DNA from: Deltaproteobacteria bacterium
Lineage (GTDB): Bacteria > JACQOV01
DNA: 16,706 nucleotides
Assembly (NCBI GenBank): GCA_016202395.1
Contig: JACQOV010000108.1
Span: forward strand, 1-16,706
Direction of reading: 5' to 3'
In this document: positions 2,876 through 16,264 of the stretch, piece by piece
How the letters are laid out: each line of letters opens with the position of its first letter
Position numbering within the stretch: position 1 is the stretch's first letter
Translations under genes and position numbers: made by a program
The notes under the pieces: generated by a model
What the model was told of the DNA's origin: nothing
The model's input: only the letters and a program-made list of their open reading frames with translations
Databases searched by the model: none

Positions 2876-4525
2876 ATGAAAAAGTTTCAATTCGTAATAA
2901 CTATTTTAGGCCTATTCGCATTAATTGGTCTTGGGTGCGGAGGGAGCTCAAGCTCTACCAGCGCCTCCACCGATACGGATAGCGATAGTGACACCACAAC
3001 GACCGAGAACGCACTCGCTGCTGAGGCATATCCGTCGGATCTGGTGATCACCTCGCCCACCGCCTCGAGCTCTGGATCGGCACTGAGAGCGGCATTGACT
3101 CGCACTGCGGCCGTAGACGAACCGGCTGGCGAACCAAAGACCATGGATGTATCTACGGAGGAATTTAAACCTCTACCTCCTTCTGAAATGAAGGAGAACA
3201 TTGCAACAATACTCGAGGCGGACTCGGAAGATGGCTGCGCCTTCTCTCTCTACATGGGGGCCCCAACAGGTTCCGCCAACTGTTATGGACCTAGCGTGAA
3301 CTATTCCAACCATCCTAACGCCAGCCAACAGGGGCAAAACCCTGGCCTTCAAACGGCCAGTGGACAACTCCCCTCCGGAGACCTCGGAATCTGGACGGAG
3401 AACGAGGCGAGCACGGGAGAGGCCTGTATCGCCGCTAAACTCAATGCCCAGGTTTCCGAGTTCGGAGCGATGCTCGACATGGCAATCAACTCCTTTGCCT
3501 CGATGATGTGCGTGGGGAAGGTCAATGATCAAGAGCCCCCTTCTGAAGTAGGCGAAGTGTTGGATCTAACAGAGATCTTCGAAGATTCTGGGGCAGCCCC
3601 TTTCACCGTTGAAGAAGCAACGACGACCCGTGAGGAGGATACCGCCGAAGGGAACGAAAACTTTGAATCCACCCTTGCGATGTCGGTTGGAATGGTGACT
3701 GAAGGAGAGACGGTGGATCTGTCGGGAGAATGTACACTGGATCACGTTAAGTTGAATGACGACAACACCCTCTACGAAGGGCACTTGACCTGTGTCATGA
3801 CGCGAGAGGTCTTCCCCGGAGAACCCACGGGGGGTTGCACCGATCCCAATGAGGACACACTCACGGATGCCCTCTCCATCGTTTATGAAAAGGCCACTGC
3901 AGACTCCCTTAATTATGAGGTCCGAAAGGCCACGTTCTGTGGAGAACTCACACTGGCCGATGTGATCACCGACGGGGAAGTGAACACTTCGGGCTGGGCC
4001 GGCAACTATCACTATGCCCTCTTCAATATGGATCCCGATACGTTCGAAGGGAACTTTGAATACGCCTGGCAGGCTGGAAGCGGAGACAGCAACACCCGAG
4101 CGTTTAACCTCTCTCTCACAGAGGATGAAGCAGAAACCGTGAGTGGCTGTGGGTACTTCGGTTACGGCCCGGCGGTGACCTCGGCTAATCTGGGTATGAT
4201 CGACGAGTTTATCTGCAACTGGGCGGGGCCTGGGAATAGTCACGACGGGCTCTTGAAAGCGCAACGCCAATGTATCACCAAATCGGCAACGGATACGGAG
4301 TTCCAATCGGTGAGCGCGAATCTGGATATCGTCTATGCGCCCACGAACAGTTGCGATGCCTCTGCGGGAGGTAACTTCACCTACACTGCCACTGGCACCC
4401 CCGCGGGAGGGACTCCAGGGGTGAGCCTGGATCGCTCTACAGCGACCACTGCGGTCACGCATGATCTCTTTCTGCTCTCGAATATCACCGACTTCACCGC
4501 CCCTACGGCGCCCGACGTTGATTAA
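2876..4525 (+). CDS. Secreted acidic Cys-rich lipoprotein (549 aa). No recognisable catalytic motif.
   Basis: Strong SD AAAGGAGG 5 nt upstream. Signal peptide MKKFQFVITILGLFALIGLGC followed by GGSSSSTSAS linker. Very D/E/T/S-rich with about 18 cysteines (likely disulfides). Coding periodicity is maintained over 1.65 kb. Confidence 0.85.
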   Translation: MKKFQFVITILGLFALIGLGCGGSSSSTSASTDTDSDSDTTTTENALAAEAYPSDLVITSPTASSSGSALRAALTRTAAVDEPAGEPKTMDVSTEEFKPLPPSEMKENIATILEADSEDGCAFSLYMGAPTGSANCYGPSVNYSNHPNASQQGQNPGLQTASGQLPSGDLGIWTENEASTGEACIAAKLNAQVSEFGAMLDMAINSFASMMCVGKVNDQEPPSEVGEVLDLTEIFEDSGAAPFTVEEATTTREEDTAEGNENFESTLAMSVGMVTEGETVDLSGECTLDHVKLNDDNTLYEGHLTCVMTREVFPGEPTGGCTDPNEDTLTDALSIVYEKATADSLNYEVRKATFCGELTLADVITDGEVNTSGWAGNYHYALFNMDPDTFEGNFEYAWQAGSGDSNTRAFNLSLTEDEAETVSGCGYFGYGPAVTSANLGMIDEFICNWAGPGNSHDGLLKAQRQCITKSATDTEFQSVSANLDIVYAPTNSCDASAGGNFTYTATGTPAGGTPGVSLDRSTATTAVTHDLFLLSNITDFTAPTAPDVD

Positions 4526-4567: not shown

Positions 4568-4626
4568 ACAGGGTTGTGGGGAAGTTATCTTGTCAAGAAG
4601 AACGTTCTGAGATAGACTGCGTTTGC

Positions 4627-6213
4627 ATGTCTGAACAAAATACCTTCTATGACTACATTGTTGTCGGTTCGGGGTTTGGAGGATCTGTCTCGGCTCTGCG
4701 ACTTGCGGAGAAGGGTTATAAAGTCGCTGTTTTGGAATCTGGGAAACGTTGGGCGGACCACGATTTCCCCAAAACCAACTGGAACGTTTTTAAATTCCTC
4801 TGGTTCCCCAAAGTATTGATGCGAGGCTTTCAAAAAATCACCTTCTTCAAAAGGGTGATGATCCTCTCGGGAACGGGAGTGGGCGGGGGATCTCTCGTTT
4901 ATGCCAACACCTTGCTCACCCCCCCGGATCGATTTTATCAAGACCCTGTCTGGAAAAATCTCGCCGATTGGAAAAAAGAGCTCGCCCCCCACTACGAAGT
5001 GGCTAAAAGAATGCTCGGTGTTACCCCCTATCCCTCACGAAGTCCCGCCGATGAAGCGCTTAAAAAAGGGGCCGATGCCCTGGGTTATGGTCATACCCAG
5101 TACAATGTGAATGTTGGGGTTTTTTTCGGCGAGCCCGGAAAGACGGTGAAAGATCCTTACTTCGGAGGGAAAGGACCCGATCGCGCCGGATGCACCGAGT
5201 GCGGTGGATGCATGGTCGGCTGCCGTCACAACGCAAAAAACACTTTGGTCAAAAACTATCTCTACTTCGCTGAGAAAAAAGGGGTTCAAATCTTTCCGGA
5301 AACACGGGTCGAAAAAATTATCCCAACCGAGGAAGGCTATCAACTGGCGACCTATCGATCGACACAAGTCCTGGGCAAAACGGAGAAGATTTATCGCGCC
5401 AAAGGGATTGTTCTCTCCGGGGGAGTGCTCGGCACCGTCAAACTTTTGTTCCAATGTCGCGACTATTACAAAACGCTCCCTCACCTCTCGTCGAGGTTAG
5501 GCGATTTTGCTCGAACCAATAGCGAGGCCCTTTTAGGAGTCTTCGCAAAATCGCGGAAGGTCGATTACTCCCAAGGAATCGCGATTACGAGCGGAGTTCA
5601 TGCGAACGATCATACCCATATCGAGGTCGTTCGTTATCCGAAAGGCTCTGGCCTGATGGGACTTCTAGGATGTCTGCTCGTAGGGCCGGGTTCTCGTTGG
5701 ATCCGTCCTTTAAAACTCTTTCTTCACATGCTGCTGCGCCCTTGGGTGTGGCTGCTGACCTATCTCGCTCCAGGTTGGTCTCAGAGATCGATCATCCTTC
5801 TAGTGATGCAAACGCTAGACAATCACATGAAGTTTCGACTCCAAAGAAAGAGACTCACGACTGAGTTTGGAGACTCTCCCCCTCCTCCGTCGTATGTGAA
5901 AGAAGGGAATGAACTGGCCGAACAGATTGCCAAATCGATCAATGGCATTCCGCTAGGCTCCATTTCAGAAACCGTCTTTGGCCTTCCCACCACAGCCCAT
6001 ATCTTAGGAGGATGCCCCATCGGTAAAGACCGTGAGCATGGCGTTATCGATCCTTTCCATAGAGTTTTCGGTTATCCCAATATGTATGTGGCGGATGGTT
6101 CGATGATCCCGGCTAATCTCGGGGTGAACCCTTCACTGACTATCACCGCCATGTCGGAACGGGCGATGAGTTACATCGCTGCCAAAGAGCAAGTTCAAGC
6201 GAAAGCGGCGTAG
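4627..6213 (+). CDS. GMC-family FAD-dependent oxidoreductase (cholesterol/choline-oxidase-like).
   Basis: N-terminal Rossmann motif DYIVVGSGFGGSVSALRLAEKGYKVAVLESG. GTGVGGGSLVYAN. C-terminal GMC signature GYPNMYVADGSMIPANLGVNPSLTITAMSERA. ATG at 4627 chosen over the ORF-track GTG at 4576 because the FAD motif follows directly. No clear SD. Confidence 0.85.
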   Translation: MSEQNTFYDYIVVGSGFGGSVSALRLAEKGYKVAVLESGKRWADHDFPKTNWNVFKFLWFPKVLMRGFQKITFFKRVMILSGTGVGGGSLVYANTLLTPPDRFYQDPVWKNLADWKKELAPHYEVAKRMLGVTPYPSRSPADEALKKGADALGYGHTQYNVNVGVFFGEPGKTVKDPYFGGKGPDRAGCTECGGCMVGCRHNAKNTLVKNYLYFAEKKGVQIFPETRVEKIIPTEEGYQLATYRSTQVLGKTEKIYRAKGIVLSGGVLGTVKLLFQCRDYYKTLPHLSSRLGDFARTNSEALLGVFAKSRKVDYSQGIAITSGVHANDHTHIEVVRYPKGSGLMGLLGCLLVGPGSRWIRPLKLFLHMLLRPWVWLLTYLAPGWSQRSIILLVMQTLDNHMKFRLQRKRLTTEFGDSPPPPSYVKEGNELAEQIAKSINGIPLGSISETVFGLPTTAHILGGCPIGKDREHGVIDPFHRVFGYPNMYVADGSMIPANLGVNPSLTITAMSERAMSYIAAKEQVQAKAA

Positions 6214-11154: not shown

Positions 11155-11583
11155 TCATTCGACGTTGTCTTCTTGACGGAGAAGGAGATAACAAATCAAT
11201 GAAATCAAGGCAATAGAGCCATCGATGGCAAAGTTGAGAAGATAAACGAAGGCGTGGGCGCTCGTGAAATAAAAGGCCAGACAGGAAAGAGAAGAGGCCG
11301 CCTTGGCAAGGGCCAATAATATTAAGAGATTCCCGTAACGCTCCAGATCCTTTTGGATAAAGTAAGCGATCCCTGTCACAGAGACCATAAAAGCGAAGGT
11401 GAGTGAGAGCCAAAACCGGTTGGTGGCTGTCACTACGGGATGAAAATCTCCCAAAAGGGCTCCTGCCTGGTTAACGGCGCGCAGCGTCCCTTCCGGAAAG
11501 AGCAGGAAGATCAATCCCACCACGGCAAAGCAGACCATGAGAATGCGGACAACCCACAAAATGCCTTTTTCTTTAATGGACAT
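11155..11583 (-). CDS. Hypothetical inner-membrane protein with four TM helices, immediately downstream of the porin-cytochrome gene.
   Basis: ATG at 11583 (GTG at 11586 as an alternative). 142 aa. Four clear hydrophobic helices. No SD. Confidence 0.55.
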   Translation of the reverse strand: MSIKEKGILWVVRILMVCFAVVGLIFLLFPEGTLRAVNQAGALLGDFHPVVTATNRFWLSLTFAFMVSVTGIAYFIQKDLERYGNLLILLALAKAASSLSCLAFYFTSAHAFVYLLNFAIDGSIALISLICYLLLRQEDNVE

Positions 11584-11641
11584 CACGTCGCAGGATAAAC
11601 CGACTCGCTATGGGCTGTCAATCTTGCCCTTAAGGGCACCT

Positions 11642-12685
11642 CTAAAAGAAGAGGTGCAATTCGGAAAAGAGCTCATTGTTATCTTGGTTTGGAGACTCCT
11701 CATTCCATCGGTACTTCAATTCAAAGCGCGAAAATCGAACGGGGAAAAACTCAAATCCTGCGCTGTAACGGCGCAAATCATCGTCAGCAATATCCCTGTC
11801 AGGATCCAAAAAATCGTACTTCACTTTGAGATTGATTCCTTGACGAAGAAGCCAATGGAGCTCCACGAGTGATGCGTCGATCTGCGCGATACTCCCCTCC
11901 TCTTCGTCCTCACCCCGATCGATCTCCCAAAGCAACGTTCCATCCCAATAACTCAAAGCGCCAAAGAGTCCATAACGCGTGCTAGTGACGGTGGGTGTTG
12001 GGTTTCGAAAAAATGAACCTCCAATCCAGAGGCGCCGTTTTACAAATCCTCCTTTCACCGTAAAAGCCTTGGCATCGTTTTGATCGTTGCCGGCGAAAGT
12101 CCCGTTGGTTAAAGAGGCGTTCCAAAACCATGGGCCTTGATTCAACCCCACTTCCACGCCATCGTCGGGCAAGCTAAAAGCAAAGCCTAAACTGCCACGA
12201 ACAAAGGAGCTGTCATCGGGGATTCGAAGGCCATAGGGGAGCGTAAATCTTCCAAACTTCGCATAGAACCCCAGAGGCAAATCTGAAATTAAGCCAAAGA
12301 TCTCTTGTGTTCCCGAGAAGAAATCGTTCTCCAGATGAAAAGCAAGGTGTCGGGCAAGATCCACCGTCAAATAGAGATCCCCCTGATAATCCGTAAAGGT
12401 GGCATCTCCACTTTCGGAATGGGTCCACCGAAACTTAAGATCGCTTCCGATAGAGATATTGGGGTTGAGTTGGCTATCCAGCGAAGAAACGTCGGGAAAA
12501 TCTTTCCAATAGGGAAGTTGATTCTCAGCGTACGAAACACCGAAGAGGTTTCGCTGTCCTGCGCCGGTGGGATTGATGTGGCAGAGGTTACAAGTCACTC
12601 CTTCTCTGGCGGCCAGCCGAGGCTCGGCGTGAAGAGACACACTAAAAACGACAAGAAAAATGAATAGAAAAGGTATCTTTTCCAT
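11642..12685 (-). CDS. Outer-membrane beta-barrel protein with an N-terminal single CXXCH haem-binding motif (Cyc2-like fused cytochrome-porin architecture).
   Basis: 347 aa. ATG at 12685 with SD AAGGA 7 nt upstream. Signal peptide MEKIPFLFIFLVVFSVSLHA. CNLCH at mature residues about 12-16. The remainder is alternating amphipathic/aromatic strands (KFRWTH, LKVKYDF, YSAGFEFF, FELKYRWN) ending in the beta-signal ELHLFF. Confidence 0.8.
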   Translation of the reverse strand: MEKIPFLFIFLVVFSVSLHAEPRLAAREGVTCNLCHINPTGAGQRNLFGVSYAENQLPYWKDFPDVSSLDSQLNPNISIGSDLKFRWTHSESGDATFTDYQGDLYLTVDLARHLAFHLENDFFSGTQEIFGLISDLPLGFYAKFGRFTLPYGLRIPDDSSFVRGSLGFAFSLPDDGVEVGLNQGPWFWNASLTNGTFAGNDQNDAKAFTVKGGFVKRRLWIGGSFFRNPTPTVTSTRYGLFGALSYWDGTLLWEIDRGEDEEEGSIAQIDASLVELHWLLRQGINLKVKYDFLDPDRDIADDDLRRYSAGFEFFPVRFSRFELKYRWNEESPNQDNNELFSELHLFF

Positions 12686-12703
12686 GTCGAGATCCTTCGA
12701 CTC

Positions 12704-12757
12704 GGTCCCGCAGCCGCGGGACCTCGCTCAGGATGACCCCCACCAAAGGCGGGGGTC
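12704..12757 (-). promoter_or_regulatory. Two GC-rich hairpins in the 70-bp gap between the lipoprotein and porin-cytochrome genes: GGTCCCGC-agcc-GCGGGACC (12704-12723) and GACCCCC-N9-GGGGGTC (12735-12757, overlapping the upstream stop codon). Neither is followed by a U-tract.
   Basis: Checked by hand. Lies just upstream of the SD of the 12685 gene. Confidence 0.35.
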
Positions 12758-13280
12758 AATTATTGAGTGCGCCGGCATCAATCCAATCCTTGATCGCGTG
12801 AATTTCCTCATCAGATAGGGGGCTTCCCCCTTTAGGCATCTGCGAACTATTTCCCCCCACACTGCCAGCGGTCCCCTCAACTTTATTCACAAGGTAGCTT
12901 GCGCCAGAATCGCCAGATTCAACCCTTTTTAAACTTGGCACTTGTTGACTCGAAACTCCAACAAGATTTTCGAAACTTTTTCCATCGGAGAGATTTAAAC
13001 CTGCTTGAGGGCTGCTGCCAGCGTGACAGCTGGATGAAGCGCAGTTGGGAGTAAAGATATTCTCTTGGATGCTTGAAAGGGTCGCCCCAAGACCCGAATC
13101 GTCCGTTTGGGTTGTGTCACCCGTATCCTCCTCCGCTGTGCCCGGATCGTCTTCCTCTTCATCGGGATTACTTACGCCACTTTCATCGCCACTGCCACCA
13201 CACGAATAGGTAAAGGTAAGCACGCTGAAGACAACTCCAACAGCAAGAAAGGCTCTCCGGAAGGATTTCACACCGTTCAT
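12756..13280 (-). CDS. Secreted lipoprotein with a C-terminal cytochrome-c-like domain carrying an atypical CX4CH motif (NCASSSCH).
   Basis: Signal peptide M(NG)VKSFRRAFLAVGVVFSVLTFTYSC, then GGSG. Acidic low-complexity linker. C-terminal IFTPNCASSSCHAGSSPQAGLNLSDG...MPKGGSPLSDEEIHAIKDWIDAGA resembles planctomycete-type cytochrome-c (PSCyt-like) domains, recalled from memory. ATG at 13280. GTG at 13271 or the ORF maximum at 13313 are alternatives. Confidence 0.75.
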   Translation of the reverse strand: MNGVKSFRRAFLAVGVVFSVLTFTYSCGGSGDESGVSNPDEEEDDPGTAEEDTGDTTQTDDSGLGATLSSIQENIFTPNCASSSCHAGSSPQAGLNLSDGKSFENLVGVSSQQVPSLKRVESGDSGASYLVNKVEGTAGSVGGNSSQMPKGGSPLSDEEIHAIKDWIDAGALNN

Positions 13281-13306
13281 TATAGGAGGTGTTTCACCAA
13301 AGTCAA
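13279..13306 (-). promoter_or_regulatory. Near-consensus sigma-70 promoter on the minus strand: -35 TTGACT (13306-13301), 16-nt spacer, -10 TATAAT (13284-13279). The -10 overlaps the ATG at 13280, so the transcript would start about 7 nt later, essentially at GTG 13271 (leaderless).
   Basis: Read from the reverse complement of 13261-13310. Confidence 0.35.
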
Positions 13307-13319
13307 TTTTCACACTTAC

Positions 13320-15025: not shown

Positions 15026-16264
15026 TCAAACGATCAAGATGTCATTCTCTATAGAAATATCAAAATAATTCCCAGTGCTATCAATGAAACTGATATTTTT
15101 GGACAGAAGCACATCCAAAATAATATCATCCGCTCGAATGTCTCCGTTGACATCGAGTTTGTATTGAGAATTAGGAGAAGTGCCTATCCCCATATTGCCT
15201 GTGATTATTTGAACTCCTTGATCGCTGATCCGAGCAATGTCGGCCTCGCCCACTACAAATGTATGGCTTGTGGACGCTACGACTCCATAGTTCATCCCTC
15301 CTCCATGCCCCAGGACATAGGATGAAACTCCTTCTCCCGTTAAATTCAGTCTCGCGCCAAACATCTGCCCCTCCACATACAAATCCTGATCTGATCGCAA
15401 ACTCCCATACGTGTGGATATCCCCTCCATCCACATCCAGCTTGTAGTCGGGAACCGCCCTCCCAATCCCCACATTGCCAGCATCTAACATAAGATTCGCA
15501 TCGGGATCTCCATTGTAATCTAATGCCCGAATTTTGTATAAATCGGGTGTATCTGCGGTAATTTGCAAACGCCTCCAAGAATCATAATATATCTGCAAAT
15601 CGCCAGGATTAATGTAAGTACTCTTCCCTCCCCCCGCGATACTTAACTTCGCCTCCGGTCTTGTCGTCCCGATGCCCACGTTGCCATTGCCCTGAACAGT
15701 GAGGTAATCGTTCGTTCCAGGAATGCCTCCAGAGGCGCTGATCTTGAATTTATGCACATCGGATCGGTCAACTCCAATCGTCCAAGCGTCCTCACCCCCT
15801 ATGTCTCCCGTGCCAGGATGATCGAATTTGATGATGGTGTCTCCTGCATTAAGACCGCCGTTACTGAGTATTAGTCGAATGTTTTTGTTATCTGTCCCAT
15901 CTCCTCGAATCTGCACCCCCCCATTATCTTGAGTATTTCTAACATCGAGAGCATAACCCGGATCCGCCGTTCCCACACCCAAATTGCCATTGGCCACGAT
16001 AAAATCCCCTTGGGAACCCATGGCGTAAGGGACGGAAACCAGGTGCTGATAAGCTACCTTCTGTGGATCAGAATCCCCATCCATCTTTTCCCATCCACTC
16101 CCATCGGCATCTCCCAACATCACCTGCAAATACAACTCCGATCCCACTATGACATTCTCGTCATCTCCTATGTCATTCCAGCTCCCTAACTCCACGGAAA
16201 AAATCCCTCCACTCACTTCTACCGGTTCCGTCACAGCCGAGGACCATTCCTCCTCCCATACCAC
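15026..16264 (-). CDS. Gly/Asp-rich surface or tail-fibre-like protein with four tandem GN[LVM]G[IV]GT..P..KLDV repeats (phage tail-fibre-type repeat).
   Basis: 412 aa. GTG start at 16264 with SD-like GGGGAGG upstream. Repeats NLGVGTADPGYALDV / NVGIGTTRPEAKLSI / NVGIGRAVPDYKLDV / NMGIGTSPNSQYKLDV. No in-frame signal peptide (see the finding on 16231-16425). Confidence 0.75.
   Translation of the reverse strand: MVWEEEWSSAVTEPVEVSGGIFSVELGSWNDIGDDENVIVGSELYLQVMLGDADGSGWEKMDGDSDPQKVAYQHLVSVPYAMGSQGDFIVANGNLGVGTADPGYALDVRNTQDNGGVQIRGDGTDNKNIRLILSNGGLNAGDTIIKFDHPGTGDIGGEDAWTIGVDRSDVHKFKISASGGIPGTNDYLTVQGNGNVGIGTTRPEAKLSIAGGGKSTYINPGDLQIYYDSWRRLQITADTPDLYKIRALDYNGDPDANLMLDAGNVGIGRAVPDYKLDVDGGDIHTYGSLRSDQDLYVEGQMFGARLNLTGEGVSSYVLGHGGGMNYGVVASTSHTFVVGEADIARISDQGVQIITGNMGIGTSPNSQYKLDVNGDIRADDIILDVLLSKNISFIDSTGNYFDISIENDILIV

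Follow-up and report, generated by a model that had tools for sequence, protein, structure and literature searches.

Cyc2 is the main marker for inferring iron oxidation from genomes and metagenomes, known examples being Cyc2PV-1 of Mariprofundus ferrooxydans, Cyc2 of Acidithiobacillus ferrooxidans and Cyt572 of Leptospirillum. The protein is defined by a signal peptide, one CXXCH haem-attachment motif, a 16-strand porin modelled on OprP (2O4V), which is the structural homologue reported for it, and two short motifs, namely AXPXFAR[Q/K][T/Y] upstream of the haem site and PXL four residues downstream of the CXXCH (PMC8406198). Haem attachment has been demonstrated in Cyc2, most Cyc2 proteins count at least 400 aa, and the pipeline of that study as well as FeGenie drop sequences shorter than 365 aa (PMC8406198). 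The recognised Cyc2 clusters share merely 15-20% identity among themselves. In another pathway of Fe(II) oxidation, foxEYZ, the dihaem cytochrome is FoxE (Table 1, PMC10654088). The present analysis concerns contig JACQOV010000108.1, taken in its entirety (16,706 bp, hereafter the window), from a groundwater metagenome-assembled genome (MAG) labelled 'Deltaproteobacteria bacterium', in which the gene of a 347-aa fused cytochrome-porin (locus HY538_09260) adjoins that of a lipoprotein cytochrome. We read these two genes as a two-gene outer-envelope electron-transfer module, most likely oxidising dissolved Fe(II) with electrons directed inwards, a reading to which a probability of about 55% can be given.

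Three consecutive genes of the minus strand make up the locus, with 70 bp between the 185-aa and 347-aa open reading frames (ORFs) and 55 bp between the 347-aa and 143-aa ORFs, exactly as placed by the initial annotation of this DNA. The first two constitute the module, and the third, encoding a protein with four transmembrane segments (4-TM), stands outside it. The features are the following.

12756-13313, minus strand: 185-aa ORF, gene of the predicted monohaem c-type cytochrome lipoprotein of PSCyt1/FoxE type; GTG start, the ATG at 13280 being likelier.
13200-13211, minus strand: lipobox-like TYSC (Cys38) followed by an acidic Gly/Ser/Asp/Glu linker, as read from the sequence; putative lipoprotein site.
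13023-13043, minus strand: CASSSCH (CX4CH) haem-attachment motif, residues 91-97, in which two residues are inserted into the CX2CH that most homologues have.
12834-12842, minus strand: QMP with the invariant Met-Pro (M78-P79 in the partner-domain alignment; MP in 70 of 74 partner domains).
12686-12755, minus strand: structured 70-nt spacer between the cytochrome genes, with two GC-rich hairpins and without a U-run.
11642-12685, minus strand: 347-aa ORF, fused monohaem cytochrome-porin gene; ATG start.
12626-12685, minus strand: signal peptide, residues 1-20, ending in SLHA; a hydrophobic N-terminus and then the conserved A-x-P of the alignment, with low AlphaFold confidence.
12551-12628, minus strand: haem peptide AEPRLAAREGVTCNLCHINPTGAGQR, with the A-x-P-x-[FL]-A motif, CNLCH and the signature CH[VI]NPTGGGxR, for which frequencies were taken position by position.
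12578-12592, minus strand: CNLCH haem motif, residues 32-36, about 12 residues into the mature chain.
12194-12280, minus strand: conserved stretch LPLGFYAKFGRFTLPYGLRIPDDSSFVRG, residues 136-164, taking in strand 5 and the greater part of the L3-like loop that leads to strand 6.
11645-12457, minus strand: predicted 16-strand beta-barrel, residues 77-347, with the C-terminal beta-signal-like LHLFF.
11155-11586, minus strand: 143-aa ORF, gene of the 4-TM membrane protein, outside the module; GTG start, four hydrophobic segments.

The elements from which a cytochrome-porin had been proposed, namely a signal peptide, a single CNLCH near the mature N-terminus and the terminal LHLFF, are all seen in the sequence of the 347-aa protein, low AlphaFold confidence being expected over a signal peptide that is cleaved off. 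No model of Pfam or NCBIfam matched this protein. A word-indexed search retrieved 47 relatives, named only as 'hypothetical' by every source naming one, and an exhaustive search returned 1013 cluster representatives (50% identity) at E <= 0.001, including 127 at E <= 1e-30. Family members typically count 345-415 aa, with a median of 375 aa. The 347-aa protein is an ordinary-length member of a large unannotated family, and the idea of a compact one-off variant is refuted by the number and length of these representatives. In an alignment of 33 sequences with a mean column identity of 33%, C32, C35 and H36 are invariant. The CXXCH lies within the first 110 residues in 180 of 196 family proteins, and exactly one CXXCH is present in 175. 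Ahead of the haem site, 96% of the family members have P at position -10, 79% have A at -7 and 80% have G at -3, and downstream follows the signature CH[VI]NPTGGGxR-x2-[FY]G.

From the same 33-sequence alignment, AlphaFold2 modelled a closed barrel of 16 strands running from residue 77 to the C-terminus (predicted local distance difference test, pLDDT, 81.7; predicted template modelling score, pTM, 0.79), in line with the barrel deduced earlier from the sequence; the refuting outcome named at the outset, a predicted structure lacking a closed barrel, did not occur. Between the strands at 140-147 and 174-183 (strands 5 and 6), a loop of 26 residues including a short helix is modelled, where porins have their constriction loop L3. 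The LPLGFYAKFGRFTLPYGLRIPDDSSFVRG stretch contains the majority of the conserved non-haem residues of the protein, with P137, Y141, K143, G145, F147, G152 and R163 invariant or nearly so in the alignment, and this L3-like stretch may help to hold the haem peptide. The best structural match of the barrel is OprP, others including Omp32 and OmpT; a Foldseek search against the PDB agrees with the porin fold, and no solved cytochrome-porin appeared among its matches.

As regards the upstream gene, the lipoprotein with a cytochrome-c-like domain announced by the initial annotation is borne out by its CASSSCH motif, by weak Pfam matches and by homologues flanking barrels in many unrelated genomes. 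Over residues 85-179 of the 185-aa ORF, Pfam reports a weak Cytochrome_CBB3 match (E 0.0018; 19 bits for a cut-off of 27) as well as Cytochrom_C. The haem site, the distal Met-Pro and a C-terminal W-[IV]-x-x-G-A helix all lie within one domain of about 100 residues, and the C-terminal domain of about 105 aa aligns over its full length with proteins encoded beside other barrel genes; in this partner-domain alignment no variation is seen at the second Cys, the His, Met-Pro or W-x3-G-A. By analogy with class I cytochromes c, the distal ligand of the haem is probably Met159, the Met of QMP. The CX4CH spacing recurs in the partners of L001, L005/L006 and L022 (L-numbers denote loci read in this analysis), L001 and L005 holding the closest barrel relatives of the window protein.

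Small homologues of the partner pass the gathering score of Pfam PF07635 PSCyt1, with 27.2 and 24.3 bits for a cut-off of 22. With the partner-family profile, whose first sequence is the window lipoprotein, FoxE (5mab) is matched in both of its haem domains at E 6.4e-11 and 45.9 bits, over a stretch that takes in the CH site, the region of the Met-Pro ligand and, at the C-terminus, the W-I-x-x-G-A helix; the C-terminal haem domain of hydrazine synthase alpha is matched more weakly. On these grounds the lipoprotein is classed by its sequence as a PSCyt1/FoxE-type cytochrome c, the FoxE homology resting on the family profile. The partner hidden Markov model (HMM) was built from five seeds including the window protein, so that its E-value of 2.2e-36, on which the family membership of the lipoprotein depends, is partly self-matching, and a single-sequence AlphaFold model of the cytochrome domain (pLDDT 47) was unusable.

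Gene linkage was surveyed in 88 loci from assemblies and GTDB species genomes, i.e. 89 with the window, comprising 75 distinct barrels at 90% identity; a 14-sequence subset of the alignment served as query and the survey is biased towards members with CxxCHINPTG. For 49 of the 75 distinct barrels, the immediate same-strand neighbour codes for a c-type cytochrome, and this linkage recurs across many phyla, in Ignavibacteria, Bacteroidota, Nitrospirae, Gamma- and Betaproteobacteria, Zixibacteria and others. Three kinds of neighbour were met.

34 distinct barrels: PSCyt1/FoxE-like cytochrome on the same strand, often in 2-3 tandem copies, some with immunoglobulin-like domains.
9 distinct barrels: 222-aa Temptin_C protein with one CXXCH and a C-terminal type IX secretion system (T9SS) sorting domain; all in Melioribacteraceae, including the isolate Rosettibacter primus.
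6 distinct barrels: small dihaem cytochrome.

An HMM of the C-terminal domain of the window lipoprotein found homologues beside barrel genes in 39 of the 89 loci. This recurrent linkage is the strongest evidence for the barrel working with cytochromes, and the two-gene module is real because a c-type cytochrome gene adjoins the barrel gene for so many distinct barrels.

The Temptin_C/T9SS partners stand directly upstream of the barrel in L058 (4313-4981; Rosettibacter primus), L027, L033, L034, L043, L046-L048, L050, L054 and L055. Their sorting domain is of type A, and their sequence predicts cytochromes that the type IX system would export to the cell surface. They carry the same CxxCH.NP.GGG.RN.FG as the barrel N-terminus, and hhalign relates the haem peptide to the Temptin_C-type partners with a probability of 97.5% (E 5.5e-12); this shared motif hints at the origin of the fused haem peptide. 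The dihaem partners, of 81-171 aa and resembling reaction-centre or c7 cytochromes, lie upstream of the barrel in L075, L077, L082, L083, L085 and L088, and replace the PSCyt1-type partner in Kryptoniota and in some Bacteroidetes MAGs.

The relation to Cyc2 was approached with 55 complete Cyc2-motif proteins of 414-524 aa from a metagenome scan, which are of Cyc2 type by the published motif alone, none being biochemically validated, and whose consensus reads AVPSFARQTGxxCxxCHTVFPELTPFGRxFKLNGY. Between the haem peptide and their N-termini, hhalign gave a probability of 96.4% (E 1.3e-9; across runs 94.6-96.4%, E 6e-8 to 1e-9), the profile comparison being significant only across the N-terminal 33-34 columns. 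A global hhalign between the families reached 90% with an unconvincing barrel alignment, and HMM-to-sequence scores between them were weak (7-26 bits). The upstream motif of the window protein reads AEPRLAARE, and A-x-P-x-[FL]-A stands in register in 143 of 180 family members. With 347 aa, the window protein falls below the 365-aa cut-off of the Cyc2 surveys, as do 36 of the 180 family members that reach 330 aa. We therefore read the 347-aa protein as a Cyc2-like variant, having the architecture and half of the signature, and not as a demonstrated Cyc2: of the Cyc2-type cytochrome-porin first proposed, the architecture (signal peptide, CXXCH and barrel) stands, and the sequence definition holds in part, R[Q/K][T/Y] and PXL being absent.

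A probe of the protein database with a peptide of the Cyc2 N-terminal consensus matched fragments of at most 100 aa only. On long contigs, Cyc2-motif genes at L089 (3001-4390) and L090 (3001-4366) were called as 83-86-aa fragments plus a separate downstream ORF. These broken genes are probably frameshift errors, and many of the 'short' Cyc2-like entries of protein databases are therefore likely artefacts.

According to the mechanism proposed here, the 347-aa protein would be exported, receive one covalent haem c at CNLCH near its mature N-terminus and insert in the outer membrane as a 16-strand OprP-like porin, with its haem peptide probably docked in or at the barrel against the conserved L3-like loop. 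A single haem would then link the outside to the periplasm, as has been proposed for Cyc2. The lipoprotein, probably co-transcribed and a putative monohaem cytochrome c with CX4CH attachment and probably His/Met ligation, would be held on a flexible acidic tether and connect the barrel haem, as an electron relay, with soluble or inner-membrane carriers whose genes lie elsewhere. Dissolved Fe(II) would be oxidised at the cell surface and its electrons passed inwards. Such inward Fe(II) oxidation appears the likeliest use, since each of the two parts is similar to a known Fe(II) oxidase, namely Cyc2 or FoxE.

Several observations weigh against this reading. Pfam and NCBIfam scans of the window detected no oxidase, bc1 or ccm genes, and the window lipoprotein taken alone, when searched with phmmer against the PDB, gave weak c-552 matches and did not reach FoxE. 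As many as 26 of the 75 distinct barrels have no cytochrome neighbour in view (4 with a cut flank). Neither PXFAR[Q/K][T/Y] nor PXL occurs in any of the 180 family members (0/180 for each), and outside the N-terminus local hhalign with the Cyc2-motif proteins gave a probability of 3.6%, i.e. no detected relatedness of the barrels. The family is concentrated in heterotrophic Ignavibacteria/Melioribacteraceae and Bacteroidota, which are not known iron oxidisers, and the T9SS-sorted partner of Melioribacteraceae implies a cell-surface location that would also fit outward transfer. Besides, all functions of the family are read from sequence, gene context and predicted structure alone. Because the hosts are heterotrophic and in part iron-reducing, because some partners are surface-sorted and because of the ambiguity of Cyc2 cluster 3, part of the weight is kept for an outward or a non-respiratory role.

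The most serious alternative, judged unlikely all the same, is the same two-protein conduit operating outwards and handing respiratory electrons, via the lipoprotein and then the haem of the barrel, to acceptors outside the cell such as Fe(III), humic substances or a surface cytochrome, which would make it a minimal analogue of a porin-cytochrome complex. It would suit the enrichment of the family in Ignavibacteria/Melioribacteraceae, iron-reducing taxa according to the literature, and the Melioribacteraceae neighbour, a T9SS-sorted surface CXXCH protein bearing the barrel's CH.NP.GGG.RN.FG motif. Iron reducers also carry Cyc2 cluster 3 genes, which FeGenie labels as possibly reductive. One haem per protein, however, makes a weak wire next to the multihaem conduits found in known reducers; no multihaem cytochrome is encoded in the window, where no ORF of at least 80 codons other than the 185-aa and 347-aa ORFs has a CX2-4CH motif, and the partner type of the window is related to FoxE, which is an oxidase.

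More improbable is a non-respiratory redox role in the envelope, such as iron redox for uptake or detoxification, peroxide or oxygen scavenging, or sensing of the external redox state, where the haem-porin pair would feed no energy-conserving chain. In keeping with such a role, the module stands alone between housekeeping genes, with no nearby oxidase or quinol-oxidoreductase genes, and its carriers are mostly heterotrophs. The pair is located at a synteny break and is missing at the same position in close relatives, as an accessory unit or insertion around which no compositional island was detected; a tblastn search of the 347-aa protein against plasmids returned no match. Against a sensor, the linkage to 1-3 extra small cytochromes in many genomes resembles a relay chain, and no regulator was consistently adjacent in the loci read.

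It is highly improbable that the 347-aa protein would be an ordinary diffusion porin whose CXXCH is fortuitous or a metal- or disulfide-binding site. The best structural matches are indeed non-redox porins (OprP, Omp32 and OmpT), a few members of the family show weak Pfam porin matches, and the motif following the CXXCH resembles the Temptin_C domain. Animal temptins are not known to be haem proteins. Yet the two cysteines and the histidine are invariant across a family of about 30% identity, the motif is found at the mature N-terminus throughout, 49 of the 75 barrels have cytochrome c genes as neighbours, and the upstream A-x-P-x-F-A is common to Cyc2, in which haem attachment was demonstrated (PMC8406198). 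A fortuitous CXXCH, the reservation expressed at the outset, was rejected because of this invariance in the 33-sequence alignment.

Equally hard to credit is a three-gene unit in which the 4-TM protein would serve as the inner-membrane electron acceptor of the module: its gene is on the same strand, 55 bp away with no terminator-like site in between, and NCBIfam weakly likens the protein (E 0.04) to a membrane cytochrome b, the gamma subunit of formate dehydrogenase, but no homologue stands next to any of the 88 other loci, just 8 were retrieved from a database of 5.8 billion proteins, and relatives keep a 4TM-DksA-GAF-GalU order without cytochrome genes. Those at 84% and 61% identity (the latter in L171) have this same order, with unrelated genes and no cytochromes upstream of the 4-TM gene; in L171, GMC oxidoreductase and PriA genes also follow the block. 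Besides, a promoter-like site (11621-11592) lies within the 55-bp gap, and at L172 the 4-TM gene (5001-5432) overlaps at its start with a GMC oxidoreductase gene lying upstream and at its stop with a downstream aldehyde dehydrogenase gene. The 4-TM gene belongs to a conserved housekeeping block, and its protein was rejected as a module member on this synteny evidence; of the three-gene distribution initially envisaged, the cytochrome-barrel pair recurs and the 4-TM gene does not accompany it. Both in the window (4576-6213) and in L171, a GMC oxidoreductase gene is found within a few kb of the 4-TM gene. From such neighbourhoods, the 4-TM protein may be a membrane subunit or anchor for a GMC-type dehydrogenase.

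Turning to the expression of the cytochrome-porin module, a strong sigma-70-like site (TTGACT-16-TATAAT, 11 of 12 matches) lies within the 5' end of the 185-aa ORF (13279-13313, minus strand). Starting at ATG 13280 (MNGVKSFRR...TYSC), the lipoprotein has a more canonical lipoprotein signal peptide than when starting at GTG 13313; this ATG is the more likely start, the true one being uncertain. The 70-nt spacer folds at -47.3 kcal/mol (z -5.2), with none of 200 shuffles equally stable, and no canonical terminator was found in it; this hairpin spacer (12686-12755) could be an intercistronic stabiliser or an attenuator setting the ratio of both proteins.

Elsewhere in the window, another predicted lipoprotein of 549 aa (2876-4525, plus strand), with no Pfam match, begins in a similar way to the cytochrome (LGC-GGSSS...) and has a long acidic Ser/Thr/Asp linker. 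A 412-aa ORF (15026-16264, minus strand), with no Pfam or NCBIfam match, contains repeated GN[VLM]G[IV]G(T)...P...KL[DS][VI] units that recall fibre- or adhesin-like repeat proteins.

Beyond Fe(II) oxidation at this one locus, a broader view is advanced tentatively, at rather less than even odds: the window protein would belong to a large, so far unrecognised cytochrome-porin family separate from Cyc2. The compact proteins of this family, of about 350-400 aa, form at least 1000 clusters (50% identity), for which neither Pfam nor NCBIfam has a model. As a separate family, it may provide a general one-haem conduit across the outer membrane of Ignavibacteria, Bacteroidota, Zixibacteria, Nitrospirae and others, with partners that may be interchangeable, i.e. 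FoxE-like lipoproteins, surface T9SS cytochromes or dihaem cytochromes. If so, extracellular electron exchange would be far commoner in 'ordinary' heterotrophs than is suggested by surveys based on Cyc2 or Mtr, to which some members of the family are invisible because of the 365-aa and motif filters. A large sister family of the same architecture, with another haem signature and a shorter length, would be either missed or counted as 'Cyc2 cluster 3' without functional basis. FeGenie-based papers report Cyc2 cluster 3 in Ignavibacteriales, Zixibacteria and related groups, and two loci of the family derive from the same deep-mine MAG set as those reports; the longer members may already have been counted there. 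The linkage to FoxE-like cytochromes, and in Melioribacteraceae to T9SS-sorted ones, offers the first testable functional context for this family, and its cultured carriers Rosettibacter primus and Roseateles paludis make experiments possible. Were the family active, the iron or humic redox cycling carried out by heterotrophs common in groundwater and soil would have to be re-evaluated.

Compared with the known systems, the 347-aa protein is closest in architecture to Cyc2, with which it has in common a signal peptide, a single CXXCH some 12 residues beyond the start of the mature chain and a predicted 16-strand barrel best matching OprP (2O4V). The A-x-P-x-[FL]-A-x3-G-x2-CxxCH stretch is found in the same register in its family and in the Cyc2-motif proteins, as is F/Y-G shortly after the haem site. 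It is shorter, as had been pointed out from the start (347 aa, family median 375 aa, for a cut-off of 365 aa, Cyc2 proteins mostly of at least 400 aa and comparators of 414-524 aa), and its family lacks R[Q/K][T/Y] after F-A as well as PXL, having instead its own signature CH[VI]NPTGGGxR. The hosts are mainly heterotrophs of the Fibrobacteres-Chlorobi-Bacteroidetes (FCB) group, and instead of Cyc1 the partner is a cytochrome of PSCyt1/FoxE-like, Temptin_C/T9SS or dihaem type. OprP/OprO and the other 16-strand general porins are the closest solved structures to the barrel model.

With respect to the partner, FoxE of Rhodobacter ferrooxidans SW2 (PDB 5MAB/5MVO) has two haem domains and CXXCH, whereas the window protein has one domain and CX4CH, is a putative lipoprotein with an acidic tether and is encoded beside a cytochrome-porin gene instead of foxY and foxZ. 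Partners scoring above the threshold of PSCyt1 (PF07635, Planctomycete cytochrome C domain) align with the window domain along its full length, the window protein itself not being reported by Pfam as PSCyt1, probably owing to the CX4CH insertion. Classical PSCyt1 domains occur in large planctomycete multidomain proteins and are not known from proteins of 120-230 aa encoded beside a porin. The porin-cytochrome complexes MtrCAB and MtoAB/PioAB are functional analogues of the proposed module in that an outer-membrane barrel and c-type cytochromes, encoded side by side, serve to pass electrons through the outer membrane; as for MtrC, surface exposure is also predicted for the partner of the barrel in some lineages.

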